Positions 8,127-43,037 of a stretch of DNA of 61,227 bases are shown here, piece after piece. The notes below the pieces were generated by a model. The model did no database searches, was not told the DNA's origin, and was given only the letters and a program-made list of their open reading frames with translations. How positions within the stretch are numbered: position 1 is the stretch's first letter; each line of letters begins with the position of its first letter. Made by a program: the position numbers and the translations under genes. Origin of the DNA: an uncultured Thermoplasmatales archaeon (GTDB lineage: Archaea; Thermoplasmatota; E2; UBA202; DSCA01); contig CAZSHJ010000004.1 in assembly GCA_964606745.1 (NCBI GenBank), positions 1 through 61,227 on the forward strand. Direction: 5' to 3'.

Positions 8127-8149
8127 CCTTTTATTTTCCCTCAATTTCA

Positions 8150-24696: not shown

Positions 24697-25113
24697 TTAC
24701 TTTACCAATTCATGGGCCATATTATCAACGAAAGACCGACCTTTAGGGGTGACAACCCGTCCTTCCCCTTTGACTGTTGTTACCAGTCCTGCCTCTTCCA
24801 ACTGCTGAAAAGCTTTTCTAACTATGGAGCCGCTGCCTTTTCTACATTTATACGGCTTTACCCCTCTGTCTCTCTTGCCGCCGAATAAACTTCGCAATCG
24901 TTCGGTTCCAATGGGGCCACGCATGTAGACTTTTCTCAATACCGCTGCCGCCCTCATATACCACCAGTCGGGATTATCGGGCTGCCTTTCCTTATGTACT
25001 CCAGTCTTTACCCACTTTGCCCACTCCGGGGGCGTGATTTTGTACTCGCTTTTGAGTTTTCCCGATAACTTTTTTATTATCGCTTCTGCTGGAACATCAT
25101 ATGCTGTGGTCAT
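24697..25113 (-). CDS. rps19e: 30S ribosomal protein S19e
   Basis: [33 protein letters not shown]. Confidence 0.97.
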
Positions 25114-25139
25114 ATTCTCAACGCCCAATACGAAAGTAA

Positions 25140-25148
25140 TATAAAAAA
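25140..25148 (-). promoter_or_regulatory. Probable TATA box of the rps19e operon
   Basis: TTTTTTATA on the minus strand 27-35 bp upstream of the rps19e ATG, just outside the transposon target site. Confidence 0.5.
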
Positions 25149-25371
25149 GTAATGGGATGAACAGTAGTTCCGAAAGTGCCTAATTCCGCCAATCATTTTT
25201 GTCTGTAAACAACAATATAATGTGATTTTAGTTGATTTTTTCATTAAAACCACCTTATTAAATAATCATTTCACTTCAAAAATTGTGTGATTAGTTTAAA
25301 ATTACTAAAAACCCACCTTCTCCAGATTGGAGAACTGGATTAAAAATCAATTTTTATCATTGAGTAACATG

Positions 25372-27015: not shown

Positions 27016-27016
27016 C

Positions 27017-27100
27017 TTTTGGTATCAATATTTTTTGATATCAAAATATAATACCGTAATTGTTTATATATTTTTTGGTATCAATATTACTTAGTATCAA
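27017..27100. promoter_or_regulatory. Phased operator/centromere-like repeat array between divergent genes
   Basis: RRTATCAA-type motif at 27021, 27037, 27077, 27093 (spacing 16/40/16); 16-bp direct repeat TTTTGGTATCAATATT at 27017 and 27073; palindrome TTTTGATATCAAAA at 27033-27046. Confidence 0.65.
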
Positions 27101-27144
27101 ATAGTAGAAAGTATTAAATAATCCAGTTGGTATTATAAAATCAC

Positions 27145-27471
27145 ATGGATGGCTTAGCCGAGAAAGTCCTGTCTCTTTCAATCCGCAGGAAGGTACTAGA
27201 GGAACTAATAAAAAAAGGCAAGGCGACTGCTTATAAGATAGCTAAAGAATTGGACATTCCTGATGCAGCAGTCGGCAAACATCTCGGGATTTTACATGAA
27301 GTAGGACTTGTACAATCACCTGAAATTGATGTTTCAAGCGGGAGACTCAAAAAGATATATATGCCATCCAATAGAGCTGCAAAAATTTTAAAGGAATTTT
27401 GGAAGAAAGAAATTATGGCAGCACCAAAAATTATCCAGAATATGTGTAAAGAGGTGAAAGAAAATGGTTGA
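27145..27471 (+). CDS. ArsR/PadR-like winged-helix DNA-binding protein
   Basis: RRKVLEEL, AYKIAKEL, VGKHLGILHEVGLV, GRLKKIY. Confidence 0.8.
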   Translation: MDGLAEKVLSLSIRRKVLEELIKKGKATAYKIAKELDIPDAAVGKHLGILHEVGLVQSPEIDVSSGRLKKIYMPSNRAAKILKEFWKKEIMAAPKIIQNMCKEVKENG

Positions 27472-28372
27472 AAAAATATTAGAGATAGATATAGATGAGT
27501 TGGGTGTAGATGAATGCAACATTAGGGGAAGTAAATGGGAATACGATGAGGAGCTTATAAAATCAATTGAAGAAAACGGTATCATCGAACCCCTATTGGT
27601 TCGACCAGCTGACCCTTCTACTGGTTTGAAGTATGGAATTATATGTGGGAGTAGACGTTATAACGCAGCAATTGAAGTGGGTTTAACAAAAGTACCATGT
27701 ATTGTAAAAAAGGTTGATGATGCAACGGCTATCGGTCTCTCTATTATGGAAAACAAACACAGGAAAGATATTCCTGGTTGGGTATACGCAGAAAAAATAA
27801 GACAGATGAACAAGTTAATAAATCATGGAACGCCAACTACAAAAAAAGTAAAAATGATTATATCAAAAACTGGCTTTGCCAAAAGAACGGTATACGATTA
27901 TCTTGCATTGACAGAGGCACCTGAAGAAATAATAGAACTGATGAAAGAACCAGAAGAACGTTCAGAGGAAGTGAATGAGTATATAAAAGCTACTGCACCC
28001 GGTGCAGCAACATTTATAAAGGAGAAACCACTTTCCAAAGATAAGGCAGTTAAAATAGCAACAAATCTTAAGGATTTTTCTGATGAAAAAAAATTTGAAG
28101 TTGCTCGATTTATCGCACCGCTTAAAGAGGAAATAGCGATGGATTTAATCGAAAAAGTAAGATTGCACCCTGAAAAACCTTTAGAAGAAATCAAGAAAAT
28201 GGTTGAGGGTATACCAAAAAGTGCTACTTGGGTGGTACAATTTGAGTGGGAGCCTAAATTGGTTAAAGCATTGGATAATGCGTGCATGGAGAAGAATATC
28301 GATAGAAAGAATCTCGTTACTAAATACGTAAAAGACGGATTGAAACGGGATAGATTTTTAGAGGAGGATTAG
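27464..28372 (+). CDS. ParB/Spo0J-family protein 1 (CTPase-HTH plus putative C-terminal RHH)
   Basis: EELIKSIEENGIIEPLLVRP, ICGSRRYNAA, MENKHRKDI; C-terminal VVQFEW...LVKALDNAC...LVTKYV has a ribbon-helix-helix pattern. Confidence 0.85.
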   Translation: MVEKILEIDIDELGVDECNIRGSKWEYDEELIKSIEENGIIEPLLVRPADPSTGLKYGIICGSRRYNAAIEVGLTKVPCIVKKVDDATAIGLSIMENKHRKDIPGWVYAEKIRQMNKLINHGTPTTKKVKMIISKTGFAKRTVYDYLALTEAPEEIIELMKEPEERSEEVNEYIKATAPGAATFIKEKPLSKDKAVKIATNLKDFSDEKKFEVARFIAPLKEEIAMDLIEKVRLHPEKPLEEIKKMVEGIPKSATWVVQFEWEPKLVKALDNACMEKNIDRKNLVTKYVKDGLKRDRFLEED

Positions 28373-29119
28373 ATGAATGAAGAATTAGCTAAAATAATAA
28401 AAGAGGACAGAGTTGCATCATTGACTACAACCAGTTTGAATGAAATTCTCAAATTATTTCCAATGCAAGGTACACCCTTTAGCTGTTGCATAACGAGCAT
28501 AAAAGCTCATGCATCATCCTCCGAAAAATCAAGGCCACTAATCGATGACCAAGAATATGGGATTGCAGGATATATCGACAAAAGCTCGGATTCCTTTAAT
28601 TTGGATTACAATATACTATTTAATGAGGAAAATGGTGTGCCAGAAAACCCATTAGATGCAGGAGGAATTAATAGAGTACTGACATCGATGAGAAAGCTCG
28701 GTTTTGAAGATGCTGCTGTGGATAATTTTACAGTAATAGTTAGGGATAAAGAGATTGGAAGATTGGCAGGTATTGATGAAGAATTATTTCACTTAACTAT
28801 GGTCTCTGAGCCTGTAGATGGCGATATGGATAGAGCGAAAGTAAAGGAACATGAAGTAAACGAGAGATTATTTAAGTATCATGGATTCAAACATCGTATT
28901 ATGCATTGTAAGAAGTTAATTGACCGTAGGCAGGAACTTACAAAAAAGCAGAGCGAGCAAAAACCATTAATTCATTGGAGGGGTTCAACTATAACTTCTT
29001 TGAGATCACCAATAAAAATTGCTCAAAAAGTAAAAGAACATTTCGGGGAATATGGACTCATAAAGAAATATGGACAAGGAAGTGAGGATACTTTGGTGCT
29101 ATTAGATGTGTCTAGATAA
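28373..29119 (+). CDS. Hypothetical protein between the two ParBs
   Basis: 248 aa, abuts ParB1 stop; no Walker A motif recognised. Confidence 0.75.
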   Translation: MNEELAKIIKEDRVASLTTTSLNEILKLFPMQGTPFSCCITSIKAHASSSEKSRPLIDDQEYGIAGYIDKSSDSFNLDYNILFNEENGVPENPLDAGGINRVLTSMRKLGFEDAAVDNFTVIVRDKEIGRLAGIDEELFHLTMVSEPVDGDMDRAKVKEHEVNERLFKYHGFKHRIMHCKKLIDRRQELTKKQSEQKPLIHWRGSTITSLRSPIKIAQKVKEHFGEYGLIKKYGQGSEDTLVLLDVSR

Positions 29120-29130
29120 ACCCATAAAAA

Positions 29131-30303
29131 ATGACTAGAGAGATAGTATCTATCAACATAGACAAATTGGATGTTGATAAATGCAATATAAGACAGGGCA
29201 TATGGGATGCTGATACAGAGTTAATAAACTCAATAAAGCAACAGGGAATAATCGAGCCATTGATTGTTAGACCTCTTTTAGGGGACAGCGGTGAGATAGC
29301 TTATGGTATAGTTTGTGGAAGTCGTAGGTATAATGCTGCAATAGAAGCAGATCTAAAGGAGGTTCCTTGTATAATTAAAGAATCAGACGACAGACAAGCC
29401 AGAGACTTATCAATGACTGAAAATCGACAGAGAAAAGATACCCCCGTATGGATGGATATTGAGTGGATCGGACTCAACTACAAAGATTATCTAAGTGAAG
29501 GTTTTATCCCTAATGAAGCAATTGATAAGTTAGAAAGTACGGGTTTTTCTCCTCAGACTAGGGAAAGATATGTAAGAATTTTTCAACTACCCATCGAAAT
29601 AAAGGGGTTGTTGAGGGAACTGTCGGACAGAACTATATATCAGAAAGAGTATATTATGCGAGTTACATCAAAAAATATTAACAATACACTTAGTTTAGGA
29701 AATGCCGATCATCTTGTCAGAATTATGGACAAATATGATGTTGAGAAGTTAATGGAAATAGCTATTTTTTTTATTAATATAAAAGAAGAAATTGCTGATA
29801 AAATAACAAATGAGTTAGCCTTGCACCCGGAAAAATCTGTAAATGAAATTTATAGAAAAATATCAAAAAAAGAGTATAGTGTAAATGAGAAAATTATTAA
29901 ATTTGATTGGGAAGTTTGGAAAGCAATAGAAGACATATGTATGGACAAGCAAATGCATGTTGACAAATTTCTAACAAATACTATAAGAAGGAGATTGGTC
30001 AGAGAGGGCTATCTAAAATCTGAAAAAGTTATCGTAGACGATATTACCGAACGCTCAGATAAGGAAAATAAAATTGATGTTAGAGCTACCAAAAGTAGAC
30101 TCCAAAAATTTGGATATAAATTTGTTAAACAAGAGGGAGATATCACTACTTTGAGATGCCCAACAAAAGATGGGTATGGATGTTTTTTCAGAGCGTATAA
30201 TAGTGGGAGAATATCTATAATCACAATAGAAAATCCTTCATCATATGAAAATCCGAGGAAAAGACTAATGGAAGAAAAGAACAGATTAAAAACAAAAAAA
30301 TGA
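29131..30303 (+). CDS. ParB/Spo0J-family protein 2 (paralog with extra C-terminal domain)
   Basis: ELINSIKQQGIIEPLIVRP, VCGSRRYNAA, TENRQRKDT; shares LHPEK and the RHH-like segment with ParB1, then about 90 extra aa. Confidence 0.85.
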   Translation: MTREIVSINIDKLDVDKCNIRQGIWDADTELINSIKQQGIIEPLIVRPLLGDSGEIAYGIVCGSRRYNAAIEADLKEVPCIIKESDDRQARDLSMTENRQRKDTPVWMDIEWIGLNYKDYLSEGFIPNEAIDKLESTGFSPQTRERYVRIFQLPIEIKGLLRELSDRTIYQKEYIMRVTSKNINNTLSLGNADHLVRIMDKYDVEKLMEIAIFFINIKEEIADKITNELALHPEKSVNEIYRKISKKEYSVNEKIIKFDWEVWKAIEDICMDKQMHVDKFLTNTIRRRLVREGYLKSEKVIVDDITERSDKENKIDVRATKSRLQKFGYKFVKQEGDITTLRCPTKDGYGCFFRAYNSGRISIITIENPSSYENPRKRLMEEKNRLKTKK

Positions 30304-30367
30304 GTTTAGATATATATTTACAAAAACATTAAAAAGGCAATAAAATTACAGTACAAAGAGTAAAAAT

Positions 30368-30601
30368 ATGATGGATGATAAAATGATAGAAATCAAAGAT
30401 GGTAAATTTTACATATTGGATAGCGAGAATGGTAAATGGATTTTTGTAACAGAAGACGAAGCAATAAAAAAATTGAAGGATACTGCAAAAAAGAGTGACC
30501 CAGAAAAGACGAGGGTTATTGAAGTTGATATCAGTGACGATGAATGGTCAATAAAACAAGTTCCATGGTCGAAAATAGCGATGAAACTAATCGGGGAGTG
30601 A
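30368..30601 (+). CDS. Small hypothetical protein
   Basis: 77 aa, KFYILD...WSIKQVPWSKIA; co-oriented with the module. Confidence 0.7.
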   Translation: MMDDKMIEIKDGKFYILDSENGKWIFVTEDEAIKKLKDTAKKSDPEKTRVIEVDISDDEWSIKQVPWSKIAMKLIGE

Positions 30602-30606
30602 TAAAA

Positions 30607-30840
30607 ATGGAAAGAGAACAAATAAACAAATTGAGTGATTATCTAAAACAAATGGATGAGATACTTGAAAAAATTTTGCACGCACAATTTAGGATACAAA
30701 ATAAAAAATGGCTTCAAGCAATAACAAAAATTGAAGATGGATTTCAACAAACAGTAGGTTATATCGCAGATGTTAAAGGTATTGAAATAAAATCTAAAAT
30801 TATGACAAATGAAGATATTAACAAAATATTGGAGGGATAA
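30607..30840 (+). CDS. Small helical hypothetical protein
   Basis: ATG 30607 after GGGGAGTGA; 77 aa amphipathic helices. Confidence 0.6.
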   Translation: MEREQINKLSDYLKQMDEILEKILHAQFRIQNKKWLQAITKIEDGFQQTVGYIADVKGIEIKSKIMTNEDINKILEG

Positions 30841-31139
30841 AAACGGTAGATACAGATTAGGCTTCATCATATAAAAGCCTAATTATTTTTGGTAATTGTT
30901 TACCTTTCTGAAGCAAAGATTCGAAAAATAGAGAAATACGCTCCCCCCCCCCATATTCAAACTAATAGAATGGATTTTAGGACTTTCTTGAGGAAATCAG
31001 CAATAAAAAGCCTCCATTCAAAAATTCTGTGTCCAGAATTATTATATTTGGAAGTTATGCATAGGCCATAGCATATATTTTTAGGAATATCACGTATGGG
31101 TTAAGTTTATATACAACCGTTCTGCATATTTTTTATTTA

Positions 31140-31721
31140 ATGACAGATTTTCTTATAACAGAAGTCATTCAAAATATTAGAAAAGAAGTGAAGGAAGGCA
31201 AAACTAAATTGCAAATATCAAAGGAGTTAGGAATAAATTATGGTATGGTGAGAAAATACGCTAAGGATACCAAACGAAGGAGGGTCTACACTGCACAGGA
31301 TATTCAGCATATAAGGGACTTGGTTAAAAAGACCGATAACAAAGCCGAAGTGGCCAGACAAATGAATATATCCCATGATACTGTGCTAAAGTATACATTG
31401 GATATCAAGGTCCGAAACAAGACCTTCGGAGAGAAAACTTGGGATATATTGAGAGAGATTATGGAAAAAGGGTATGTCTACCTCAACAACGGAAAGACAA
31501 CCAAGGTTTACATGCTGAGGAAACATTTTCCATCTATACAGATGGCACGGGTAAAAGGGAGGTCTATTGCATTTCTTCCAGACAGGAAGGAGGAGGCTAT
31601 GAGAGCGATGCTGCAGAAATTCGATAAGAAGGTTTGGAGCTATCAGGAGCTAAAAAGTGTGACGAAGTTGTTTGATAGCGATTTAAATAGGAAAGAGAAA
31701 AAGAAATTCATTGAGAAATAA
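31140..31721 (+). CDS. Tandem helix-turn-helix protein
   Basis: Two HTH-like repeats (TKLQISKELGINYGMVRKY; NKAEVARQMNISHDTVLKY) followed by a wHTH-like region. Confidence 0.7.
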   Translation: MTDFLITEVIQNIRKEVKEGKTKLQISKELGINYGMVRKYAKDTKRRRVYTAQDIQHIRDLVKKTDNKAEVARQMNISHDTVLKYTLDIKVRNKTFGEKTWDILREIMEKGYVYLNNGKTTKVYMLRKHFPSIQMARVKGRSIAFLPDRKEEAMRAMLQKFDKKVWSYQELKSVTKLFDSDLNRKEKKKFIEK

Positions 31722-31814
31722 AATGAATTACATAAGATGACTTGAAGCATATAAAGAGGATGCAATGAAGGAGAGATTGAAATCCCTCGGCTTAATTCAG
31801 CTAAAAGCTTAATA

Positions 31815-32015
31815 TTAGTTTAGGAGGATTAGACCCACTAGTTGTAACAAGATTCCAGCCGATATTAATATGCCGGCAATCCAATAAAAAACCCCCCTGA
31901 ATGTGTTTAATCTTCTTATTGTAGGAAACTTATCCTTAACGCAACTCCACAACAGAATTACTGCAGACCCAATAGAAAAAACTGTTACACCTACAGGAAA
32001 TATGAGGTCATTCAT
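31815..32015 (-). CDS. Small two-TM membrane protein
   Basis: 66 aa with two hydrophobic segments; overlaps the upstream gene by 8 nt. Confidence 0.55.
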   Translation of the reverse strand: MNDLIFPVGVTVFSIGSAVILLWSCVKDKFPTIRRLNTFRGVFYWIAGILISAGILLQLVGLILLN

Positions 32016-32868
32016 TATCTTCTCTCCCTAAAACATCACGATACATAATCGTATCTATAATAGTATTTTTAATGGTGTTATAAAATTTTTCTTTTTCTAT
32101 ATTATCAATCCATATCTCTCTTAGCTGATATTCATTAAGTAGAATTTGTGCTTTTTCATTTATCCCAACTTCCAAGAGCTGGGATAACCTAAGCTGATAA
32201 GTTTTTAGTAAGGCCTTTGCATTATTGATACTCTCATACCCCGCCAGTGTATGAGGGTTTAGCCAGAAAGTTCCTTGGGCCACCCAATCTATAAGGGCGC
32301 CCATTATAGCATCATCTTCCTTCTTATCGCTATTTGAATACTCTTGCATAGGCCATATCTCCCGCATAATAGAAATGTTTTGGCAATCAGGAAATTTGGA
32401 CCCCATGAGAGTTTCTAATTTATTTAGCAATCCAAAGTTCCACAATGGCTTGTACATCATTGTATAGAAAAGATTCTTTTCCTTGTTAGTGAGATTTGGG
32501 GGTACATCCACGCTCCACTTCAACACACCTGAAGCTTTAAGCTCGATTTTGCCGTACCTAATAATATCATACAACTGGGCAACCCTGTTGGTATATGGTG
32601 TGGTTACCCCTCCATAATCACTAGTTGTATCCCATATAAAAGAAACCCGCCCTTTTGAGTAATGTTTTTTCTCTTTTGTACTCAAAACTTTATAAACTGC
32701 ATTTTCGTTTTTCCCGTTTTCTACAAAGCTATTCCATATATCGGTTAATTCCTGCGGGGACAACGGATGTGGTAGTACATATATATGTGATAAGTTTTCT
32801 TTTTTCATAAATTTCTCTGTATTAAACACTGATTTTAGGAGTGTATTTTTCCATCCATATGGGGGCAT
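32008..32868 (-). CDS. Hypothetical protein
   Basis: 286-aa ORF coupled to its neighbours; no motif recognised. Confidence 0.65.
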   Translation of the reverse strand: MPPYGWKNTLLKSVFNTEKFMKKENLSHIYVLPHPLSPQELTDIWNSFVENGKNENAVYKVLSTKEKKHYSKGRVSFIWDTTSDYGGVTTPYTNRVAQLYDIIRYGKIELKASGVLKWSVDVPPNLTNKEKNLFYTMMYKPLWNFGLLNKLETLMGSKFPDCQNISIMREIWPMQEYSNSDKKEDDAIMGALIDWVAQGTFWLNPHTLAGYESINNAKALLKTYQLRLSQLLEVGINEKAQILLNEYQLREIWIDNIEKEKFYNTIKNTIIDTIMYRDVLGREDNE

Positions 32869-33289
32869 ATTTATTTAATAAGTCTCGAGATGTGATTTGT
32901 AAATCAGATAAATCTCTAGCGACCTTTTTAATTGCATCCATTTTTGGTGAATCTAACTGCCGTTTAGTTATCTCGGCCAAGAGCATACCTTTATCGGTTA
33001 ATTCAATCCAATAGTGGGCTGTACGCATACCCTCCTCTTTCACCCTATACCGTTTTATTAATCCTACAAATTGTAGGGAAAGCATATCCTTTAATAATTT
33101 TCTATCGTTCACTCCCTCATAGCATAATTCACTAAACTCATATCCAACAATTTTTTCTGATGCTTGATTGTCTAGAGAATGCTCTGAGAGGGCGTATATG
33201 CCCAGCTTAAGCCGTTTCCACTGGTAGACTCTATTATCCCTAGCCTCAGACAAGATAACACAAATCATACCCCAATCCATTTCAGCCAT
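32822..33289 (-). CDS. Winged-helix protein, Panacea/SocA (DUF4065)- or YwgA-like
   Basis: YQWKRLKLGIY...YEF..LCYEG...LLKDMLSLQFVGLI...ELTDKG pattern. Confidence 0.5.
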   Translation of the reverse strand: MAEMDWGMICVILSEARDNRVYQWKRLKLGIYALSEHSLDNQASEKIVGYEFSELCYEGVNDRKLLKDMLSLQFVGLIKRYRVKEEGMRTAHYWIELTDKGMLLAEITKRQLDSPKMDAIKKVARDLSDLQITSRDLLNKYAPIWMEKYTPKISV

Positions 33290-33766
33290 TTTATCTACCC
33301 AATTCTAATCCAATCATTTCACGGCATATATCCTTCTATTCTTTTTAAAAGTTTCGTTATTACTGGTGAACTATAGTTAAATAAACATTGACTGATATAT
33401 CTATTATACTTTCTCATATGTCTACTTAGAAGCATCAAAACACGTAGATGACTGAAGTAAAGTTCTTTATGATACATATGTGTCGTTATATTGAATGGAA
33501 TGGGACTACAAAAACCTATCGGCACGGACTTCTTTAGCTATGAAATGTGCTGTGCCGCATAAATGGAATTTTCTTGGTTATTATTAAATTAAATGCTACT
33601 AACTAATATAGATATATATCATATATTCTTTCAATATTCGTTGGAAAAGGAGTTATTCAACACAGCAATGAAATGTAAATGATAAAAACGCCGGTCACCA
33701 CGTGAATATATTTGTGTGTACCTACAAAAAACAACAACATTTTTAATCACAAGCAAGTTTAGTATT

Positions 33767-34384
33767 ATGGCAAATGGTCATTCGCTCTTGCATAATCAAA
33801 TTATAAAGCAGTTATTTAGTAAGGAAATACGAGAGACAGTGGATTGCTGTCATATATTGTATAGACAAGGGTACGTATACGGTGGGCAGGGAAATGTTAG
33901 CCACAGGATTGAAGACGATAAATTTTTAATCACGCCATCAGGATATTCCCTGAGAGATATCACCCCTGACAATCTATGTTTAGTAAACTTTGATGGAAAT
34001 AATATTAGCGGGAATGCATTAACACCTTCCTCAGAATATTTAATGCATCTTGGGATTTACAAACAAAGAGGAGATGTCAATGCAATTATACACACTCACC
34101 CTTTAGAAGTAGTTTTATATTTTAACCATGAAGATAAACATTTATCTCTGCCTAATGGGGAGTATATAAAAAAAGATACTAAAAAAATATCCTATATTCC
34201 TCCCGGCTCAGATGAACTAGCAAAAGAAGTGGCTAACCAAAGTACAAAAACGGATTCCATAATACTCTGCAAACACGGTCTAGTTACGATGGGGGAAAAT
34301 ATAAGAAAAGCGGCTGACCTGACCGGAATCATTGTTTATTACAGTAAATATGAAGTAATGAATGAATTATGGAATAAGTTGTAG
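33767..34384 (+). CDS. Class II aldolase/adducin-family protein
   Basis: GNVSHR, ITPSG, PSSEYLMH, IIHTHP, CKHGLV. Confidence 0.88.
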   Translation: MANGHSLLHNQIIKQLFSKEIRETVDCCHILYRQGYVYGGQGNVSHRIEDDKFLITPSGYSLRDITPDNLCLVNFDGNNISGNALTPSSEYLMHLGIYKQRGDVNAIIHTHPLEVVLYFNHEDKHLSLPNGEYIKKDTKKISYIPPGSDELAKEVANQSTKTDSIILCKHGLVTMGENIRKAADLTGIIVYYSKYEVMNELWNKL

Positions 34385-34394
34385 GTTATTTTTT

Positions 34395-34424
34395 CATTCC
34401 TTGGCATTTTTTGACATTCGGAAC
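34395..34424. mobile_element. Internal degenerate copy of the transposon right end
   Basis: CATTCCTTGGCATTTTTTGACATTCGGAAC versus CATTCCTTGGCGTTTTTTAGCATTCGGAAC at 38186-38215; terminal TACTG is missing. Confidence 0.8.
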
Positions 34425-34469
34425 ATTAGGAATAACTGGTGATGCACTTAACTTTATAGATATATTAGC

Positions 34470-35753
34470 CTATGATTCTTTACTGCCTAGGGCAATGACG
34501 CCATCCCAGTATGAACCGAACAGGATGCGGTTGTCCTCGGGATTGTCGTTTTTGGTGAGGATGGTGAATTGGCCTCCCGCATAGTTCCAACCGTTCATGG
34601 GAAACTGCCACAGAATGGAGTTGTTCGCGGTGAGGTCGAGTGCGGTGATATATTGTCGGGGGAAGAGGCTTGCGGCGGAGATGAGCATAACGGGGTGGGA
34701 GAAATCGCAGATTGTCATGCAGGAGAGGGGTTTGTAGCCCAGTAAGACTCCGCTGGGGACAAGTTTATCAATCCTGATTTCCTCGATTTGCCGGATGGTG
34801 TGGTCTTCCTTGACGAAATGGATGAGTCGACTACCCCGGTAGTCCTCGTACCAAAACCCGAGGCGTGGGTCCTTGGAGAAGGAGAACATGGTGATGTATG
34901 GATATGGCAGAGAAATGGTGGTATAGTGTTCGCCCAAGTCGGTTACGGCATAGATGTGTGGTTTTTTTGAAAACCCCGACAGGTAGCCGTCAAAGTAAAC
35001 GGTGTTGTCGATTAACAGGGGACTGGCCTGACTATGACCGGTAAAAGGAAAATACCATGCCTCGGCTAACGTCTCGTCAGCCTGCCGATTCACGTCGACC
35101 GCGTAGAGTCGCCCCTCGAGGTTTTTCCTTAATTTCCCTTTAGCAGGCCTGAACTCGGTGGAGATATAGATCCGGTGGCCATGCGCACATGCCGAATTAA
35201 TGGTGGAAAAATACCCTGCCTCATGTTCCCCGAGTTCACGGCTGCCTAAAAATGTGCCATCTTGTGCATCAAAAGCATAAACGGGGCCAGTGGTGGGAAG
35301 GACAATGGTCTTATTTTCGACAAGGGTGGGGCTAAATGGAATGATGATGGCCCCTTGTTTGTTGGGTATATCGGTTTGCCATACAATCTCAGTTTGATTG
35401 TTGTTAACATCAACCTCGACCATGAGGATGGTTTTGTTGTCACAGGCGATGACCCTATTGTCGATGCTCACCATGGGTGTCGAGGAGACAGCAATCTGGT
35501 TCAGAAGGGACTTTGAGTTCCACAGGCGATGACCATCATAATCATAAATAACCAGAGTATCCTTCCTGCCATGAAAGGTACATGCCGCAATGGTACCATT
35601 GCCAGCAATCCCATTGCCCTTCGCCCCCTTCTTTTCACCTTGTAAATCGTTTCTGTGCCATTTTATCTCAACGTCGCGTCTGGGCACCGGAAGATCGATG
35701 CTGTCGCTCATATGAGGATCACTGTGAACCATCGCACCTCCCCACTTCGGCAA
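34470..35753 (-). CDS. PQQ/BamB-like beta-propeller protein
   Basis: Repeated SSTP/SPTL/ASP blades, LYAVD, W-terminated blades; likely start ATG 35732; visibly GC-richer than neighbours. Confidence 0.7.
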   Translation of the reverse strand: MPKWGGAMVHSDPHMSDSIDLPVPRRDVEIKWHRNDLQGEKKGAKGNGIAGNGTIAACTFHGRKDTLVIYDYDGHRLWNSKSLLNQIAVSSTPMVSIDNRVIACDNKTILMVEVDVNNNQTEIVWQTDIPNKQGAIIIPFSPTLVENKTIVLPTTGPVYAFDAQDGTFLGSRELGEHEAGYFSTINSACAHGHRIYISTEFRPAKGKLRKNLEGRLYAVDVNRQADETLAEAWYFPFTGHSQASPLLIDNTVYFDGYLSGFSKKPHIYAVTDLGEHYTTISLPYPYITMFSFSKDPRLGFWYEDYRGSRLIHFVKEDHTIRQIEEIRIDKLVPSGVLLGYKPLSCMTICDFSHPVMLISAASLFPRQYITALDLTANNSILWQFPMNGWNYAGGQFTILTKNDNPEDNRILFGSYWDGVIALGSKES

Positions 35754-35803
35754 AACAAAAGATATTTTTTCACCCCCTATTTGACATTATTTGCATTTTG
35801 TCC

Positions 35804-36829
35804 TCACCTTTTTGGGGTGTTTTTATTCTCCCTCAACATCTTCAGAATGTTAAGTTCCCGCCGCCATATTACCCGTACCGCAAGGGCACACAGTGCAACA
35901 GTCAACACAATAGTGGCAATCAGACTTGCTATGCCTCCGATGGAATTTGATAAGCCAAGCTTTACCCTTGTCCCCCATGGTAGCTCCACGGAGCGTAGCG
36001 TCGTGGTATCGACTTTAACTTTTTGATCATTTATAAATGCAAAAAGTATTGCTTGGATGTAAAATGATGCTTTATTGTTTGCTTTTGGTATCTCACAGTC
36101 TATGGTGAAATTTTTCTCTTTGCCTGGTTTCAGTACTTCGTTATTTTTGGTTTTGCCGATTTCTTCACTTAGTGTCCCCATGCCTTCTATGCCAGGTATA
36201 CCAAGCGAGGACGGCTTTACCATATCTATTCTAATGCATATAGTCACTGAAATATCACCATAATTTTTAACTGTGACCTCTGTCTTGATGGTTTTTTCTT
36301 TGATGGCAGAAATTTTAAAATCAGTTATGCGGATTTTCATATCCTCAATAATTTCTTCTAAGGAAAAATCTGATATTTCTATCCCCTGAGGGGTTGATTT
36401 ATCAGAGACAAATAATCTGGGACCAATTTTAATGAACACGGTAGCAACGATACCATAACTCTTATACCATTCAACATCTGATTCACCTACTGTACATGAG
36501 ATAGTTAATTCCGTTTCTCCTTTTCTAATTCTTTCATACATACTACTGCTTCCAATTTCTTTTCTTACTAAGCCCGTTAGACTATCAACTAAATCAATTC
36601 GGACATATACATTTTTTAAAAACCAGCCATCATTTTTCAAGGTAACTGTCACATTGAAACTTTCATCTAAATTTATAGAAACCTCGGGATTCTCTGGTTT
36701 TACATCAAGGATTTTGACTTTTCCTTTGATAAAATCAAAGTTTGCACCGTCTGCAATCCCCATACTAGAAAACAGTACACACCCAACTACAAGCACGATT
36801 AATACCTCACGAACCATGAAAGTAATCAT
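35804..36829 (-). CDS. Membrane-anchored exported protein with two Ig-like repeats
   Basis: Signal peptide; two beta-rich repeats (VTVTLKN / TEVTVKN); C-terminal TM with basic tail. Confidence 0.7.
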   Translation of the reverse strand: MITFMVREVLIVLVVGCVLFSSMGIADGANFDFIKGKVKILDVKPENPEVSINLDESFNVTVTLKNDGWFLKNVYVRIDLVDSLTGLVRKEIGSSSMYERIRKGETELTISCTVGESDVEWYKSYGIVATVFIKIGPRLFVSDKSTPQGIEISDFSLEEIIEDMKIRITDFKISAIKEKTIKTEVTVKNYGDISVTICIRIDMVKPSSLGIPGIEGMGTLSEEIGKTKNNEVLKPGKEKNFTIDCEIPKANNKASFYIQAILFAFINDQKVKVDTTTLRSVELPWGTRVKLGLSNSIGGIASLIATIVLTVALCALAVRVIWRRELNILKMLRENKNTPKR

Positions 36830-36845
36830 TTTTAATTATTTATTG

Positions 36846-38003
36846 TTATCTGCCTTGGGGGGGGAATGTGTAGTGCCGAATGCGAAACGACGAACGACAT
36901 CGACAGGGCTGCCCCCGGGTCCAAGTAACAGTAAGATTTTGCGTATTGATAATCCAGGCAAAAGCAGAAATATTCGGATGTCTGCAGATGTCACCTTCGT
37001 CAGGAATCCGCTTCCAGTAGCCGCCCTTGTGATCTCGTATAAGGGATTGACAGGTTTCCTCAGACAAATCCCCATCATTACTATGGCAGGTTAACAACTC
37101 CTCCGCTCTATCGTATCTGCGAAATGAGGATGGGTATTCCTCTCTGTTTGCCACCGACCCAGTTTTTTCGGGGTCCAGCCAAACGTGATGATTCGTATGC
37201 CACAGTATCCCTCTTTGACCGCCATCCCTCACAGCAATATAACTATGTGTTTGCTCAATCATAAGAATGCCCCCCTCTATGTCGCACCAAGCAGATGTCT
37301 CAAAATCCCAATGGTAGGGCCACGTTTTTTTCGTAGAAGATGACCTTGTTATTTCCCTCCATAGCGTGCTCACCTCCTCAACGGTTGCACAGTGTATTAT
37401 GGTATAAAGATCCAGCAAATAGGTGGGTATCCCCTCATCAGACGAATCAATATGTTCCGGGTTCTTGGCAAGTACGGTGGCAGCACCAGCAAACCCCAGC
37501 CCTTTTTCATTGAGCAGAGGAACCTCAAAAATCACCGGGATACCAAGATACATATAATCATATGGGGGATTATGGTCTTGGCGGAACTCATGCAGCCGTG
37601 GTTTTCGCGTGAAGAAAAACCGGAAAATTGGCTTCAGCAAATCAAACATGTTCAGATCAAAATTTTGCGTCATATACGTGTGATTGTCCCCAGTTGCAGG
37701 TGCCGTCATTGCCGTTACCGTACAGGCTTTATCCATATACCTACCAAGCACTATCTGCATGGCCATCAGTTTCTGAAGCCCAATATGAGCGCCAATAGAA
37801 ACATTGAAAAGCTCTTGGAAAAAACTAGGGAGATTTTTTTTAAGCAACGCAATCTGTTTATCCACCTCTTCCATCACTTTCTTTTTCCCATATTTACGAA
37901 TGAAAATCCAAAGAATGAGATACAAAAAATGGTAGAACATCATATTTCTTCGGCCTAATAGCTTTGCATAACCTTCGCCAAAAAAATATCTATTTTTCAT
38001 CAT
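36846..38003 (-). CDS. C45 family (Ntn-hydrolase) peptidase/acyltransferase
   Basis: Catalytic ACT, QNFD, LNEKGL, HTNH. Confidence 0.8.
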   Translation of the reverse strand: MMKNRYFFGEGYAKLLGRRNMMFYHFLYLILWIFIRKYGKKKVMEEVDKQIALLKKNLPSFFQELFNVSIGAHIGLQKLMAMQIVLGRYMDKACTVTAMTAPATGDNHTYMTQNFDLNMFDLLKPIFRFFFTRKPRLHEFRQDHNPPYDYMYLGIPVIFEVPLLNEKGLGFAGAATVLAKNPEHIDSSDEGIPTYLLDLYTIIHCATVEEVSTLWREITRSSSTKKTWPYHWDFETSAWCDIEGGILMIEQTHSYIAVRDGGQRGILWHTNHHVWLDPEKTGSVANREEYPSSFRRYDRAEELLTCHSNDGDLSEETCQSLIRDHKGGYWKRIPDEGDICRHPNISAFAWIINTQNLTVTWTRGQPCRCRSSFRIRHYTFPPQGR

Positions 38004-38229
38004 TTATCAAAATATATTTATCATATAAAAAACCAATGAAAATAAATTTGGTACCTCCAATTTCATGAATGTTTTTGCCCATTTATAGCGATAAAAAGGT
38101 AGAGCAGGTATTCCTTGGCATTTTTGTTTGCTAAAACACTCTCTGTTCAAAAATTCTAAACTCAATTCATATCTGTTGGGATGGCCATTCCTTGGCGTTT
38201 TTTAGCATTCGGAACTACTGATGAATGAA

Positions 38230-38280
38230 CAGTAGTTCCGAAAGTAGCTAATTTCGCCAATCATTTTTGCCTGTAAAATA
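38230..38280. mobile_element. Terminal sequence of a second sister element
   Basis: CAGTAGTTCCGAAAGTAGCTAATTTCGCCAATCATTTTTGCCTGTAAA closely matches 25162-25210 and is preceded by ATGAA. Confidence 0.8.
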
Positions 38281-38397
38281 CTAAACCAATTTTTGTTTAT
38301 AAAACTCATACAGCAGATAATCATTGACAAAAACACATTGTATATGGTGGGTTTAAAAGAAAAAAGAAAGAGGATTAGATGTTGAACTTGGTCTCTC

Positions 38398-39738
38398 TTA
38401 AAATAGGACTAACACATCAACTTTTTCGCTTTCACTGGGATTACCGGCACCATCATAGGCCGTTACTCTTATTTCATGAAATCCAAATCTCTTCTCCAAG
38501 GTCCAAACATAAGGCGTTTCATTATCTATAAATTTTGAAATGTCATCAAGATAAAACTCAACCCTATCAATCCCAGAAACTTCCTCATCCTCTACTTCAA
38601 CATCCCAAGCATCTGCAGTTACATCAAGAGAACCAATAATCTTTGTTCTACCAAGATAAACCTCTCTAACTGGGTTATCAAATAAATATAGCCACCCATC
38701 AAGAGGCTTAGTTAGCTCCACCACTGGTTTTCCAGTATCATTACCCCTAATAACATCACTTTCTACACCATGAACGGCAGTTCCGATAAAATAATGGCCA
38801 TACCTTATTCTGCACCATCCTCTTTCTCCAGTAACCCCGTACGTATCCTCACCCCAACGGTTACCCCAACTGTTTTTAACAATCCAACATTGTTCACTAT
38901 CGTTATAGCCAACGATAACAGGCTGATGGTTTATATCCTCCACCGATTCACCTGGTTGATGTGGGTGTACCAAGATATCACCACGGTATCCAAACCAGTC
39001 ATCATACACAGCCACATCTGCCACGAGGGGGCCATTCTCTATCAATGCCTGTTTTATTGCATCAACACTCTGATTGACTGCTGTCCAATAATCACCAACG
39101 GGCAAGAGATAACTCTCCCAGTCCGGGCATTTATCATCGCAGGAACCATTCTCAGCTATATATGGAAAACATGATTCTGGAATTGCACCGCCAGTTTCAT
39201 GCATCCACTCGAATGATCTTTCGGCCCATCCTCCGCTACATCCATAGCCAGGACCACATGATACCAAATACTGTTCTGATAGGTCCATGTCCACATCAGA
39301 ATCATTAAATTCAATATTTATTGCTGCCTCAAGGGCGCCAATAGCACCAAATGCCCAACAGGAGCCACACTGCCCTTGATTCCGTATGGGGGTGGTCCAG
39401 TCCCCACCATTATAGTTTCTCCAATCAAAACTAGGGGGCAAATTCCCAGCAGGTTCTTTTAACTCTACCGTATTAGCATTAGAATAACCAAGGTAGATAT
39501 ATCCGAGGCCATAAGGACATTCTCCAGAATCATCACTCTGTGTCTCTCCCCTTAGCACAGAGGTTATGGTAAGACAAAAAAAGAGGAACGATAGCCCTAT
39601 AGCCAAACTTTTTTTCCATTTTTTGTTTTGCATTTTCTTCGCCTCCGAAATACAAAATGACTTACTGCTTATATAACCTTCGAAAACGTCCACAAGTGAT
39701 AACAACAATTTATAGAGATTCCCTGGCATTTCCATCAA
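38398..39738 (-). CDS. Secreted C1A (papain-family) cysteine peptidase with C-terminal Ig-like domain
   Basis: FDWRN, RNQGQCGSCWAF, LSEQYLVSC, NHQPVIVGY, KNSWG. Confidence 0.92.
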   Translation of the reverse strand: MMEMPGNLYKLLLSLVDVFEGYISSKSFCISEAKKMQNKKWKKSLAIGLSFLFFCLTITSVLRGETQSDDSGECPYGLGYIYLGYSNANTVELKEPAGNLPPSFDWRNYNGGDWTTPIRNQGQCGSCWAFGAIGALEAAINIEFNDSDVDMDLSEQYLVSCGPGYGCSGGWAERSFEWMHETGGAIPESCFPYIAENGSCDDKCPDWESYLLPVGDYWTAVNQSVDAIKQALIENGPLVADVAVYDDWFGYRGDILVHPHQPGESVEDINHQPVIVGYNDSEQCWIVKNSWGNRWGEDTYGVTGERGWCRIRYGHYFIGTAVHGVESDVIRGNDTGKPVVELTKPLDGWLYLFDNPVREVYLGRTKIIGSLDVTADAWDVEVEDEEVSGIDRVEFYLDDISKFIDNETPYVWTLEKRFGFHEIRVTAYDGAGNPSESEKVDVLVLF

Positions 39739-39882
39739 TCAAATTTGTGTTCTGTTAAAAAATTCAACAATAAACAAGACGGCTGCCGCAAGATTGTTTG
39801 ATGCAAATTTTAGCAGGGAGGAAAAACATAAGTTAGTTAAAGAAAAATAGAGAAGAAAAGGATAGTGGGAAAAAGAGAAAAA

Positions 39883-40089
39883 TTAACCGTTTTGATCGTC
39901 CTCGAAAATGAACAGTTCATCTATTGTTGTTTTTAATGCTTTTGCAACATCGTAAGCCAGTTTTAGAGAGGGATTGTATTTTCCTTTTTCGAGAAATAGA
40001 ATAGTTTCTCTGCGTACACCTACTCTTTTTGCAAGATCCTCTTGAGTTAGATCGTAACGGGCTCTGAGTTCCTTAATTCTTGTTTTCAT
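39883..40089 (-). CDS. XRE-family HTH transcriptional regulator
   Basis: [34 protein letters not shown]. Confidence 0.9.
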
Positions 40090-40091
40090 GC

Positions 40092-40496
40092 TTATTTCCC
40101 TTTCCAGGCTAAGTAAAGATAGGATACCATAAATGTTAATCCTCCACACAAGACAACAACGGCTGTGACATAGTGTCCTGGCATTTCATAGTCAAATAAA
40201 ATTCCTGATAGTAATGGAGCCCCAACTGCACTCCAAATTGAAGCAATAAATCCATAGGAACATGCTTTATAATTTGTTAGTTTCAACCTTTCATCTTGTG
40301 CAGGAAGTCCCTTTTTAACATTTTTTATTCTATCCCATAGTATATACATTGCTGAACCTATTAATATCAAGACTATTCCAATTGGGAATATTTCATCTAG
40401 TTCAATGTTTCCTGCATTTAGTACATAAAAGGATAGTGTCACTATTACAGCTGCTACTATTCCAAGGCCTAATAAAATTCCTTTTATATCTTTCAT
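40092..40496 (-). CDS. DUF2178-like membrane protein
   Basis: Four TMs, DERLK motif, typical partner of XRE regulators. Confidence 0.7.
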
Positions 40497-40500
40497 TTTT

Positions 40501-40761
40501 TCATACCTCCTTATATTTATTTAATTTTGTTTTTCTAACTATATCTATAACAGAAAGAAAGACACCTGCACCTATAAAACTATAGCCTATCAGAAGGTCA
40601 TTACCGCCGAAAATGATGGCAAGAATAACTAATGCCATCCCAAGCATAGCTAGTCTAGAATGTGGTTTTTCTTTCTTTTTCCTTACCAAGATTACAATAA
40701 GTGCAACAGCTATCAACACAACGATGGATATTGCAATGTAAACTTCTGGTGTACTACTCAT
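40501..40761 (-). CDS. Small three-TM membrane protein
   Basis: 86 aa hydrophobic, same operon. Confidence 0.7.
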   Translation of the reverse strand: MSSTPEVYIAISIVVLIAVALIVILVRKKKEKPHSRLAMLGMALVILAIIFGGNDLLIGYSFIGAGVFLSVIDIVRKTKLNKYKEV

Positions 40762-41216
40762 TTTTTACCTCCTTTTCTATATTAGTTAGTGATAGCTTTT
40801 CGTTAGTTTTCCCTAACTCAATATTTGTTATTTCAAACTTTTTATTTATTTTTTCTAACATAATGTTAGGTATATATAATACAAGTATTTATAGTTTTCT
40901 GCTCTTCATGTATTTAAGGAGAAAAATATAGTCGTATCGAAAGATATTACGGAGTTTCTGCCATTATATTTAACAAGACAGCAAGCACCGGATTTATTAA
41001 GAAAGAGAGAATATGAAACAATGCAGTTTTGTTCCTCAAGGGAGAAAGGAGAGGACTAGAGAATACGTTTTCTTTTTCTAAGCATTATTTTTTATAGATT
41101 TTCCTTGGCAAAACCAACATACAGGAATGAAGGAGATTGCTATGTAAAACGGATTTATGACATGAAGAACTCACTCCTTTTTTATTTAATTATTTAAAGT
41201 TGAACATTTCCCTTAT

Positions 41217-42197
41217 TTACAATGTCCTTATGACGAAGAATAGAATAGAGAGAATGGCTAACCCCATTATGCCGCTTGCCTGCCACTTTGGATAATTTAG
41301 CCTGCTTTTTATTCCATTCATTGTTTGCCTGATATCAGCGTTTGTTGAGGAAATCTTTATCAGATCCCGTAGGCCTCTAAAGGGAATAGAATACGTAAGG
41401 ATGAGAATGAGTACGGTAAAAGCCAAAAGTATCTCAATATTAAAGGAGTGATCCAGTATAGCCAATGGTGTTAAACTCGAAAAAAGCAAATAAAATCCAA
41501 TAATACTTATACACAGTCCGCCGGTTACCAACGCAAGGGCTATTTTTAGTGTCTTTGTTAATCCCCATCTTACGGCAGGCGTCTTTAAACCGGTTTCTTT
41601 GTCCTCCAAGTAATCTTGGGATTGATTTACCAAAGCTATGCCGTAATGTACTATTGTAAGAGCCAGAGTAATAAAAATTAGTGGTAGAGAAGGCATTCCT
41701 CCTATTACAACATAAAGTAGAAAAATAAAGGGGGCAAACATGGCTGAAAAAGCTAATGTGGCATGCAATATACCCCTGACTTTGAAGTGAAAAGGTTCAA
41801 CAGAATATCCTAAACCAAAAAAAGTGGCAAAAATAATCCAGATTAATATCCAATAGTTGTTGAGAAGATAACATATGTGAGCCGTGATTAAGATACCTGC
41901 CATGACTTGAAGAAAAATTAGCGTCTTCAGCATTTTCTTCCCAAGAACACCAACGGCTTGTGATACAAATGTTTTATATTTGCTGTCTACTTCAACATCT
42001 GCTAATGCGTTTATTAAAAATCCGCTCCAGAACAGAAGCATAAAAACTAAAAACGATTCTATAACATGTATGGCTAAAACATTAGAAAGCGATGCGGCTC
42101 CGAGAAGGAGGGGTATAGCCATACCTGGGGCTTCTCCGGGGATGTATTCCATCCTGCATGCATTTGCGTATGCTCTCAAGTATTTCCTGAGTTTCAT
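41217..42197 (-). CDS. UbiA-family prenyltransferase
   Basis: LINALADVEVD, NQSQDYLEDKETG Asp-rich motifs, multiple TMs. Confidence 0.8.
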   Translation of the reverse strand: MKLRKYLRAYANACRMEYIPGEAPGMAIPLLLGAASLSNVLAIHVIESFLVFMLLFWSGFLINALADVEVDSKYKTFVSQAVGVLGKKMLKTLIFLQVMAGILITAHICYLLNNYWILIWIIFATFFGLGYSVEPFHFKVRGILHATLAFSAMFAPFIFLLYVVIGGMPSLPLIFITLALTIVHYGIALVNQSQDYLEDKETGLKTPAVRWGLTKTLKIALALVTGGLCISIIGFYLLFSSLTPLAILDHSFNIEILLAFTVLILILTYSIPFRGLRDLIKISSTNADIRQTMNGIKSRLNYPKWQASGIMGLAILSILFFVIRTL

Positions 42198-42488
42198 CTT
42201 TTCCCCTTTTTATGTGGTAAATATCGGGCTTTTATAAGTTCTCTTTAAATCAGTATTTAATAAAGGTCATAAAAAATTTAATTAGCAATGACTTGATAAC
42301 AGATGTTCTTCGGCACTTTTAATGTGTCAAAACTGCCTTCGTTTAAAAATTTTAATTCTATTTTTTTTCTATCTGTAATACAGTATATCCCTCGGCGAAA
42401 AATGGCAATCGAATAACTGAATGAGGGTAAATTTTACTGGTTCACAGTGTATCGTCACTGTGTTATATGCTGCCAGACATACGAGATA

Positions 42489-43037
42489 TCACTCCCCATT
42501 TGTGGGCCCTTTCTCCTGTTTATTTTCTCCTCCATCCAGCCCAAATTTCTTTTCCTTTTTCCAGATGAAAATTGCTGCTGCTATAAGGACCACGCTTGTG
42601 ACAGCAAAAATAACAATAAAATAAAGCATCATCATGTCCCTGCTACCCGCACTTGAGTTTTCACCTGCCATAACTTTTAGCTGTTCAGGAGCTTTATCTT
42701 TCAGATAAAGATATGCGGAGACGATTGCCCCTATGATAAAAACAACAGCAGACGATAGAAGAAGGGTTATCCTTGCTTTTTCGGGATGCAAAATGCTTTT
42801 TCCCTTACGTGTCAAACTGTAATATATCCATTTGTGGTCAGATTCCTCCTTTCTTATCAGCCCTGCCTCGACCAGTCTGGACAGGTGTTTGTGAATAGCG
42901 GATTTGTTGTAGTCAAGGTTTTTAGCTATCTCCGATAGAGTTTTACGCCTTTCATCCAGTTCTTTCAACATTTCTATTCTCGTATCTGATGCCAGTGCAG
43001 CGAATACATCCCTGTCGATGATTATCTTGCTCGACAC
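42489..43037 (-). CDS. Membrane-anchored ArsR-type wHTH regulator
   Basis: FAALASDTRIEML, HKHLSRLVEAGLI, YYSLT, then two TMs. Confidence 0.85.
   Translation of the reverse strand: MSSKIIIDRDVFAALASDTRIEMLKELDERRKTLSEIAKNLDYNKSAIHKHLSRLVEAGLIRKEESDHKWIYYSLTRKGKSILHPEKARITLLLSSAVVFIIGAIVSAYLYLKDKAPEQLKVMAGENSSAGSRDMMMLYFIVIFAVTSVVLIAAAIFIWKKEKKFGLDGGENKQEKGPTNGE

Follow-up and report, generated by a model that had tools for sequence, protein, structure and literature searches.

Probable stacking of ISH3-like elements at a promoter-defined point upstream of rps19e in an uncultured Thermoplasmatales archaeon

Target choice by the DDE insertion sequences of the IS4/ISH3 group is considered to be loose and AT-rich. 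IS30 targets its own inverted repeats, and (IS30)2 dimers are known, while the Ty3 retrotransposon targets RNA polymerase III start sites through TFIIIB, which contains the TATA-binding protein (TBP) and Brf1, a relative of transcription factor B (TFB). Mobile insertion cassettes (MICs), for example MIC231 of Bacillus cereus, are reportedly mobilised by IS231. The ISH3 family was described by De Palmenaer et al. in 2008 as an archaeal family with CRGT termini and target duplications of 4-5 bp, the classical members of which are 1.2-1.5 kb long and carry the transposase as their sole gene (PMC2266710). Tandem accretion has been described for integrative and conjugative or mobilizable elements (ICEs/IMEs) at tRNA or other attachment (att) sites and for Tn7 at attTn7 (PMC5812530, PMC5704250). 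Here we analyse the 17 kb between rps19e, the gene of ribosomal protein S19e, and a winged-helix-turn-helix (wHTH) gene in an uncultured Thermoplasmatales archaeon (GCA_964606745.1, contig CAZSHJ010000004.1). The window, that is the whole stretch of DNA analysed, comprised 61,227 nt (positions 1-61,227, forward strand), and the host genome (G000) is a 1.79-Mb metagenome assembly in 103 contigs. In our judgement these 17 kb are probably a stack of mobile elements of one ISH3-like family, formed by repeated insertion at a promoter-defined point.

Two neighbouring elements, E1 and E2, were distinguished. Their joint (38208-38242) consists of TTCGGAACTACTG, ATGAATGAA and CAGTAGTTCCGAA in succession, and 9 bp separate the left-type (L) end of E1, at 38220, from a second right-type (R) end at 38230-38281. 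An initial annotation of this DNA had placed a sister end 9 bp past the first one, with about 50 bp of similarity. Both identity and profile search identified it as a real copy of the family R-end, and 38225-38277 was 92.5% identical to 25157-25209 when the flanking ATGAA was counted in. In E1 the 13-bp terminal repeats are perfect, the transposase is intact, and ATGAA is perfectly duplicated on either side. The Pfam DDE_Tnp_1 match of the transposase was above the Pfam cut-off. Against NCBIfam ISH3 (NF033541) an E value of 2e-45 was obtained with 155 bits, under the curated 225-bit cut-off and over residues 223-514 only. Homologs of this transposase amount to over 680 proteins.

The R-type end, CAGTAGTTCCGAAAGTGCCTAATTYCGCCAATCATTTTTG, was present at 25162(+), 38230(+) and C31:8408(-), and a profile of the R region detected exactly three R-ends in the assembly, those of E1, of an element on contig C31 and of E2. 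Copies of the L-type end, CAGTWGTTCCGAATGYYAAAAAACGCCAAGGAATG, were found at 38220(-) and C31:6510(+), together with an internal relic at 34394-34438(-). The family is characterised by CAGT termini, which E1 has on both sides and which also delimit the C31 element and E2, by unlike ends (R about 48 nt, L about 40-170 nt) that are dissimilar past 13-17 nt, and by 5-bp target duplications. Besides ATGAA at E1, these duplications were AATTTA (6 bp) at a 10.4-kb element of G013, and ATTTT and TGATG at small elements of G013 and G023. The C31 element (6510-8408) is 1.9 kb long, its two ends, L and R, are the same as those of E1 (identities of 94% and 90% for the pair), and it holds no transposase, only two secreted-protein genes, each preceded by a repeated promoter unit of about 85 nt. 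A gene for a 581-aa C1 peptidase lies immediately outside its L-end. In a genome-wide list of the terminal 13-mer and its variants, CAGTA[CG]TTC[CG]GAA[AT]GT was the end of several insertion-sequence and miniature-element families of this genome, many of them at contig ends. The box GCCAAGGAAT was considered as a genome-wide regulatory box and rejected, with only 16 copies found, 6 of them within this element family.

The empty site was found in a congener (G003), where rps19e and the wHTH gene stand 263 bp apart on one contig. The initial annotation had raised the adjacency of these genes in relatives, and in G003 they do adjoin; the wHTH gene is the host gene bordering the insertion site on its far side. 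G006, from another genus of the same family, has 5.4 kb of unrelated genes for secreted proteins between the two, and this insert likewise consists of two elements, with R and L ends 5 bp apart. In the G006 contig (C59, locus L025), the 3' end of a 488-aa gene with about 60 nt downstream of it is duplicated beside the rps19e promoter (5940-6000 and 7880-7945), and the promoter-proximal element has no recognisable R terminus. In G004 a contig break separates rps19e from the wHTH gene. The contig with the wHTH gene (C39) terminates with an L-type end (reverse complement CAGCAGTTCCAAATGGCACTTTTCGCCAAGGA), which corresponds in position to the E2 L-end and has similar flanks, and the similarity of this end to the 291-nt G000 spacer had an empirical p of about 0.009. 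Both G004 and G006 natively carry AATGAATGAA at the position of the spacer and gggAATGAATGAA upstream of rps19e, with no element there. Since these genomes hold matching sequence without an element, the spacer ATGAATGAA is native. E1 is intact, while the L-end of E2 is decayed and its position is common with G004; thus E2 was there first, the order already proposed in the initial annotation.

The cargo of E2 is also irregularly distributed. A full-length UbiA homolog was found neither in the genus nor in the family, where G006 has just a fragment, and the nearest relative of the peptidase (64%) occurs in another family of the order. The peptidase, XRE and UbiA modules were not linked elsewhere in relatives, and a search for linkage of UbiA with the XRE cassette found none in these genomes. 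The peptidase and UbiA genes are therefore patchy accessory cargo of this position and not the syntenic core genes that had been considered as the alternative. In congeners, the spacer upstream of rps19e contains palindromic repeats of about 45 nt, cttcttttcccgaggcttttctttttaagaaaaggctccaagaaa (L026 in G001:C14, L030 in G003:C13, L029 in G004:C75), and G001 has lost the wHTH gene and most of a Vps62-like gene, of which a 3' remnant is left.

Regions upstream of rps19e were taken from 31 genomes of the order, and G034 was added separately (32 in all). A family end was present at the rps19e point in 10 of the 32 genomes and on 4 metagenome contigs, in both orientations. The ends were of the R type in G000, G015, G016, G017, G020, G030, G026 and G034, at 5 nt (G030: 6 nt) past the promoter block, and the opposite, L-type orientation was found in G021 and G029. 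The end at rps19e was the only such end of the genome in G016, G017, G029 and G030, and one of two in G015 and G021. On the metagenome contigs the transposases, all at the rps19e joint, were 87%, 83% (two samples) and 65% identical to that of E1, and Pfam Ribosomal_S19e was recorded on the homologous rps19e genes. There the joint reads CTG, then five bases (NNNNN) that were different each time, then cccattacTTTTTTATAT or agaattacATTTTTATAT.

The insertions at this point are recurrent and independent, and vertical inheritance does not account for them, because both orientations occur in one genus (G015 and G034 versus G021 and G029), because the rps19e-site transposases of G015, G016 and contig L159 are 96-97% identical while the adjoining rps19e proteins are 77-83% identical, and because the transposases of this site form two clades, interleaved with copies from other sites. 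G015, G016 and L159 represent three hosts of at least two genera. In these, the 200 nt separating the stop codon of the transposase from the R terminus have diverged strongly, and only about the last 45 nt, corresponding to the R-end, are kept, which suggests recombination or rapid turnover of this spacer. One could imagine instead a single ancient insertion at rps19e with no targeting, inherited vertically, mostly lost and refreshed by homologous recombination with incoming relatives. Such a history would accommodate the prevalence of the R-type orientation, and the R-region spacers that differ despite nearly identical transposases hint at recombination. However, it is very improbable in view of the two orientations inside one genus and of the near-identical transposases beside far more diverged rps19e genes. 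Moreover, the perfect duplication of E1 itself lies in sequence that is empty in congeners, and the distance to the B recognition element (BRE) and TATA box is fixed at unrelated loci too.

This last point was obtained from 79 independent flanks of G000, G007, G010, G011, G013, G023 and other genomes (G000 plus loci L073, L093-L148, L153 and L157), rps19e sites being left out. The flanks were read away from the element, and a word with at least 6 of 8 matches to TTTAWATA was taken as TATA-like. Such 8-mers began at +13 to +17 with counts of 9, 1, 19, 12 and 13, versus about 3 per other offset, and AAA starts were concentrated at +9 to +12. The combined motif, a BRE-like A-run with the TATA-like word, occurred in 23 of the 79 flanks (15/45 R flanks and 8/34 L flanks) versus 0-4 at shifted registers of the same flanks, and at random genome positions 0.7 was expected, with a maximum of 4 in 200 trials. 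Pooled per-position composition of the flanks gave a weak signal, which became clear once TATA-like words were scored by their offset from the end. About one third of the G000 flanks contain an outward-reading open reading frame (ORF) with its start 33-68 nt from the element end, a distance at which a leaderless gene would be expected to follow such a promoter. The motif would represent, as judged from its sequence, a working promoter. The fixed offset applies throughout the superfamily that has CAGTA.TTCSGAAWGT ends. Insertion also recurs at a second site, 5' of eIF-5A (L106, G013:C10:17320; L075:5649, G023:C44; L151; L161), with a flank of the form N5 followed by a[ag]gcaaaATCTTATCTATTAgTTTTATATTT, in two genomes of one genus and two further assemblies.

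The pentamer ATGAA was tried as a specific target sequence and rejected. The flanks, which the initial annotation had wanted tabulated genome-wide, share no target 5-mer; duplications and flanking 5-mers differ at every copy. The target appears to be set by the neighbouring promoter, and neither by ATGAA nor by the element's own ends. Preference for the site and preference for the elements' own ends had both been suggested earlier; the former is demonstrated by the repeated, independent occupation of this point in other genomes, while the latter is not needed. Since L and R ends lie 5-9 bp apart in G000, G006, G023:C2 and G038:C67, it could still be argued that the elements target their own ends in the manner of IS30 and that the E2 R-end, not the rps19e promoter, drew E1. 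This seems quite unlikely to us: most occupied rps19e sites hold a single end with none beside it, and what is fixed is the distance to the promoter block (5 nt), rather than that to the older end (9 nt in G000). The 5-bp spacing is predicted by repeated hits at a promoter-defined point alone, and the 79 other flanks show the BRE/TATA offset, not end-like sequence.

Based on these data we propose that the family would insert approximately 10 bp 5' of a BRE/TATA promoter directed away from the element. After the insertion this promoter would still be intact, and the target would persist. Because the insertion spares the promoter, the same point could be hit again and the elements would stack, giving a tandem array. 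The newcomer would land between the promoter and the older element, its own 5-bp duplication acting as separator. The corresponding order, L of the new element, 5 bp, R of the old one, was seen in G006, G023:C2 and G038:C67. In G023:C2 (L103, 443-449) and G038:C67 (L095, 1075-1081) the L-end stands exactly 5 bp from a solo R-end of about 40-60 nt, directly followed by the gene of a FlaJ/TadC-like membrane protein (G023) or by phoU-pstS (G038), about 50 nt of the older element being left. In G000 the spacing is 5 + 4 bp, with E1 at the canonical 5 nt from the promoter block and E2 at 9 nt. In the window E2 (38230-42419) would have arrived first, as a passenger-only element. Its passengers are the C1 peptidase, which follows a promoter unit of the family type, the XRE regulator together with two small membrane proteins, and UbiA. 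E1 (25162-38220), the autonomous 13-kb element, would have come later, 4 bp nearer to the promoter, duplicating ATGAA and leaving its L-end 9 bp from the E2 R-end. As far as the compared sequences tell, the family comes back to the same promoter of a ribosomal gene in different genera, and it lands at a constant offset from the promoter elements.

The R-end of E2 (38230-38277) is identical to that of the C31 element at 45 of 48 bases (93.8%), after which the similarity ends. Since about 45 nt of the R-end are conserved amid 96-97% identical transposases, a well-kept 48-nt R-end beside diverged DNA is normal for the family. For the opposite end, a 181-nt profile of the L-end and promoter unit was built only from the E1 and C31 copies. 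Its match at 42271-42411 on the minus strand, with a genome-wide E of 0.0022, was the 6th best, after known family members. The envelope (42251-42419) stops at 42419, the terminus put forward in the initial annotation, and the region is colinear in the alignment with the L-end and promoter unit of E1 and C31. The L-end profile also matched the unit upstream of the peptidase (39698-39765, E=3e-7). The five E2 genes all read from the L end towards the R end, as in E1 and the C31 element, and there is no transposase among these ORFs (peptidase, XRE regulator, two membrane proteins, UbiA). Because family sequence occurs at both ends and inside and a transposase is lacking, E2 is a transposase-less element of the family, in line with the earlier proposal of a non-autonomous relative of about 4.2 kb. 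The gene content proposed at the same time was largely recovered by Pfam, namely the C1 peptidase beside the second end, the XRE regulator and UbiA, while DUF2178 had no match in the small membrane proteins even at E<=5. E2 is probably immobile now, because its L-end is decayed: 9 of the 13 terminal bases are kept, with a deletion. The 5-mers flanking it, ATGAA and ATGAG, match at 4 of 5 positions with a 1-nt offset. Both E2 and the C31 element look like passenger-only cassettes, with putative mobilisation in trans. The coordinates of all features are collected in Table 1.

Table 1. Features of the rps19e-wHTH region and related miniature elements (window positions unless a contig is given)
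Feature	Position	Strand	Evidence or remark
rps19e (ribosomal protein S19e)	24697..25128	-	probable ATG 25113; homologs in 31/31 relatives
rps19e promoter block, putative, cccattacTTTTTTATAT on sense strand	25129..25156	-	candidate target determinant, conserved across the order
E1 target duplication, left copy ATGAA	25157..25161	.	
E1, ISH3-like transposon, 13,059 bp, >12 genes	25162..38220	-	same end pair as C31 element
E1 transposase, 547 aa, distant ISH3-type DDE enzyme	25372..27015	-	Pfam DDE_Tnp_1 E=2.5e-7
Solo L-end within E1, 9-nt duplication	34394..34438	-	L-end profile E=3e-4
E1 L-end region: terminus, two GCCAAGGAAT boxes, inward-reading TATA-like box	38041..38220	-	
9-bp spacer ATGAATGAA	38221..38229	.	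right copy of E1 duplication (38221-38225) + native TGAA
E2, decayed element without transposase	38230..42419		family sequence at both ends and inside
E2 R-end	38230..38281	+	R-region profile E=3.6e-10
C1 (papain-family) peptidase, C-terminal immunoglobulin-like domain	38398..39738	-	Pfam Peptidase_C1 E=3e-49; likely start ATG 39633
Family-specific promoter unit and spacer 5' of peptidase	39698..39865	-	75% over 155 nt to C31 gene1-gene2 spacer (BLAST)
XRE-type helix-turn-helix regulator	39883..40149	-	probably 39883-40089; Pfam HTH_3 E=6e-16
Two small multi-pass membrane proteins	40092..40496 and 40501..40761	-	no significant family
UbiA-family prenyltransferase	41217..42197	-	Pfam UbiA E=6e-15
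E2 diverged L-end region, reverse complement CAGTTATTCGATTGCCATTTTTCGCCGAGGGAT ... AATTTTTAAACGAAGG ... AAGTGCCGAAGAACATCTGTTAT	42251..42419	-	profile E=0.0022
Right flank AATGAG, possibly the decayed E2 target duplication	42420..42425	.	5/6 versus left AATGAA 38224-38229
ArsR-type wHTH protein with membrane anchor	42489..43037	-	Pfam HTH_5; adjoins rps19e in G003
134-bp miniature elements, same end type	G000 C41:13399-13532, C41:15055-15188, C55:2952-3082, C56:6911-7044		without duplication

Several observations weigh against the stacking model. The 28-nt partner end at 42392-42419, as delimited in the initial annotation, was not significant when taken alone (rank 216 with a 38-nt terminal profile), and it is the longer region 42251-42419 that gave a match. 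The target duplication of E2 is just a 5/6 match, and its R-end stands 9 nt, not 5 nt, from the promoter block. The two ends of E2 have decayed unequally (R 94% versus L about 60% like live copies), and its G+C content spans 0.29 to 0.43. Target duplications are absent at the C31 element and at the four 134-bp small elements of G000. The combined motif is present in only 29% of the flanks, promoter function is predicted from the sequence, and all the genomes are metagenome assemblies.

The unequal decay of the ends and the mixed G+C mean that E2 may not be one unit; it may be a mosaic or fusion of two decayed elements, in which a module with the peptidase was joined to an older one with XRE and UbiA. 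Exactly how many events took place within E2, and in which order, can be proposed only tentatively. A more radical reading is that E2 is no element at all: 38230-38281 would be the short solo R-end of a deleted copy, 38282-42419 a patchwork in which remains of at least two older elements are mixed with other accessory DNA, and the decayed L-end would come from a much older insertion common with G004. Besides the unequal decay and the mixed G+C, the internal unit is 75% like C31 versus 94% for the R-end, the three gene modules are unlinked in relatives, short solo R-ends 5 bp from an L-end and followed by ordinary genes do exist in G023:C2 and G038:C67, and G004 has an L-end beside the wHTH gene but no UbiA. 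On the other hand, the uniform L to R direction of all five genes, the 5/6 match of the flanks and the conservation of approximately the first 45 nt of the R-end alone among relatives with 96-97% identical transposases make this reading unlikely. It would alter the history of E2 and not the stacking at one site.

The joint itself could in principle be artificial, if E1 were a free circular, plasmid-like molecule and its circle junction had been mis-joined to a chromosomal solo end. E1 does carry ParB-like genes, and the genome is a metagenome assembly of 103 contigs. Nevertheless, exact identity of the R-ends extends over just 21 nt with ATGAA counted in, and a run this short would not mislead common assemblers. 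Independent samples and assemblies show the same joint of transposase and rps19e, and the duplication is present at both E1 joints, so that an assembly artefact is scarcely credible.

Stacking of E1 and E2 thus remains our preferred explanation, and the interior of E1 may contain traces of similar events. Its cargo of about 11 kb includes an ArsR gene, two ParB-like genes, an aldolase and secreted proteins. The last cargo gene, a 385-aa ORF (36846..38003, -), was considered as the transposase and rejected; it weakly matches peptidase C45/acyl-CoA:6-aminopenicillanic acid (6-APA) acyltransferase (AAT) (E=7.5e-5), and the transposase is the gene at 25372..27015. The internal L-end at 34394-34438 forms a complete terminus once a tandem duplication of 9 nt is allowed for (CAGTTATTCC, TAATGTTCC, then GAATGTC...), and it is the relic boundary of an older, 9.3-kb element inside E1. 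This dead end hints at an earlier stack that became a single transposon after its inner ends had been lost. When the inner ends of a stack are lost the neighbours become fused, which is a possible route of cargo capture.

A further, tentative idea, which we hold as a possibility rather than as the expected outcome, is that the family selects the archaeal core promoter itself, maybe via the extra N-terminal domain of the transposase touching DNA-bound TBP/TFB, and that stacking and fusion capture cargo. The dead L-end inside E1 would then be the record of a fusion, with E1 and E2 as the next candidate, and the family would be an archaeal analogue of Ty3 targeting TFIIIB. How the transposase would read the motif is in this proposal conjectural.

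Recurrent insertion upstream of rps19e would explain the variable DNA found just upstream of this gene across this Thermoplasmatota order, and also the pile-up of secreted peptidases and accessory genes there. If the model is true, it represents a natural safe-site strategy in archaea that uses a single transposase. Small insertion sequences would grow into cargo transposons of 10-13 kb by stacking at a site followed by loss of the inner ends, and the family would be a compact candidate tool for promoter-proximal insertion in archaea.

Among the described families, ISH3 is the best curated match of the E1 transposase; the CAGT termini of E1 fit CRGT, and the 5-bp duplications agree. However, the elements here are 13 kb and 10 kb long, with about 11 kb of cargo and with transposase-less relatives, and thus lie outside the size and single-gene definition of the family. 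The E1 transposase has about 220 extra N-terminal residues and scores under the family cut-off, and the ends are unlike each other past 13-17 nt. In the literature searched, no report of fixed-offset promoter targeting or of stacking by ISH3-type elements was found. E2 and the C31 element resemble MICs in that their passenger genes lie between ends of the type found on an autonomous element of the same genome, with no transposase inside; the present family differs from MICs by its asymmetric ends and internal repeated promoter unit, and the L-end of E2 is decayed. As in IS30, left and right ends stand a few bp apart at E1/E2. Here, however, the two neighbours are not the same element, the distance between their ends is either the length of the duplication or 4 bp more, and a second end is missing at most occupied sites. 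The right-hand neighbour is not related to E1 past the first 48 nt, unlike in a tandem IS30-type dimer.

The proposed mode of insertion, a short and constant distance away from a promoter element bound by TBP and with the gene spared, recalls Ty3, which belongs to a different enzyme class and a different domain of life; contact with TBP/TFB is a conjecture here, and a reading based on AT-rich sequence or bend fits equally. ICEs/IMEs and Tn7 use tyrosine or serine recombinases, or TnsABC with TnsD, and a defined att site, whereas a single DDE transposase and 5-bp duplications were found here. The only transposition gene of E1 encodes one DDE_Tnp_1 protein, in place of a TnsA/B/C core with a TnsD/TniQ selector, and the rps19e site is one of many promoter-type targets, eIF-5A being the second recurrent one. 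What these systems have in common with the present family is that a conserved host sequence beside the insertion point survives and is reused, and that the elements stack head to tail, as at rps19e.

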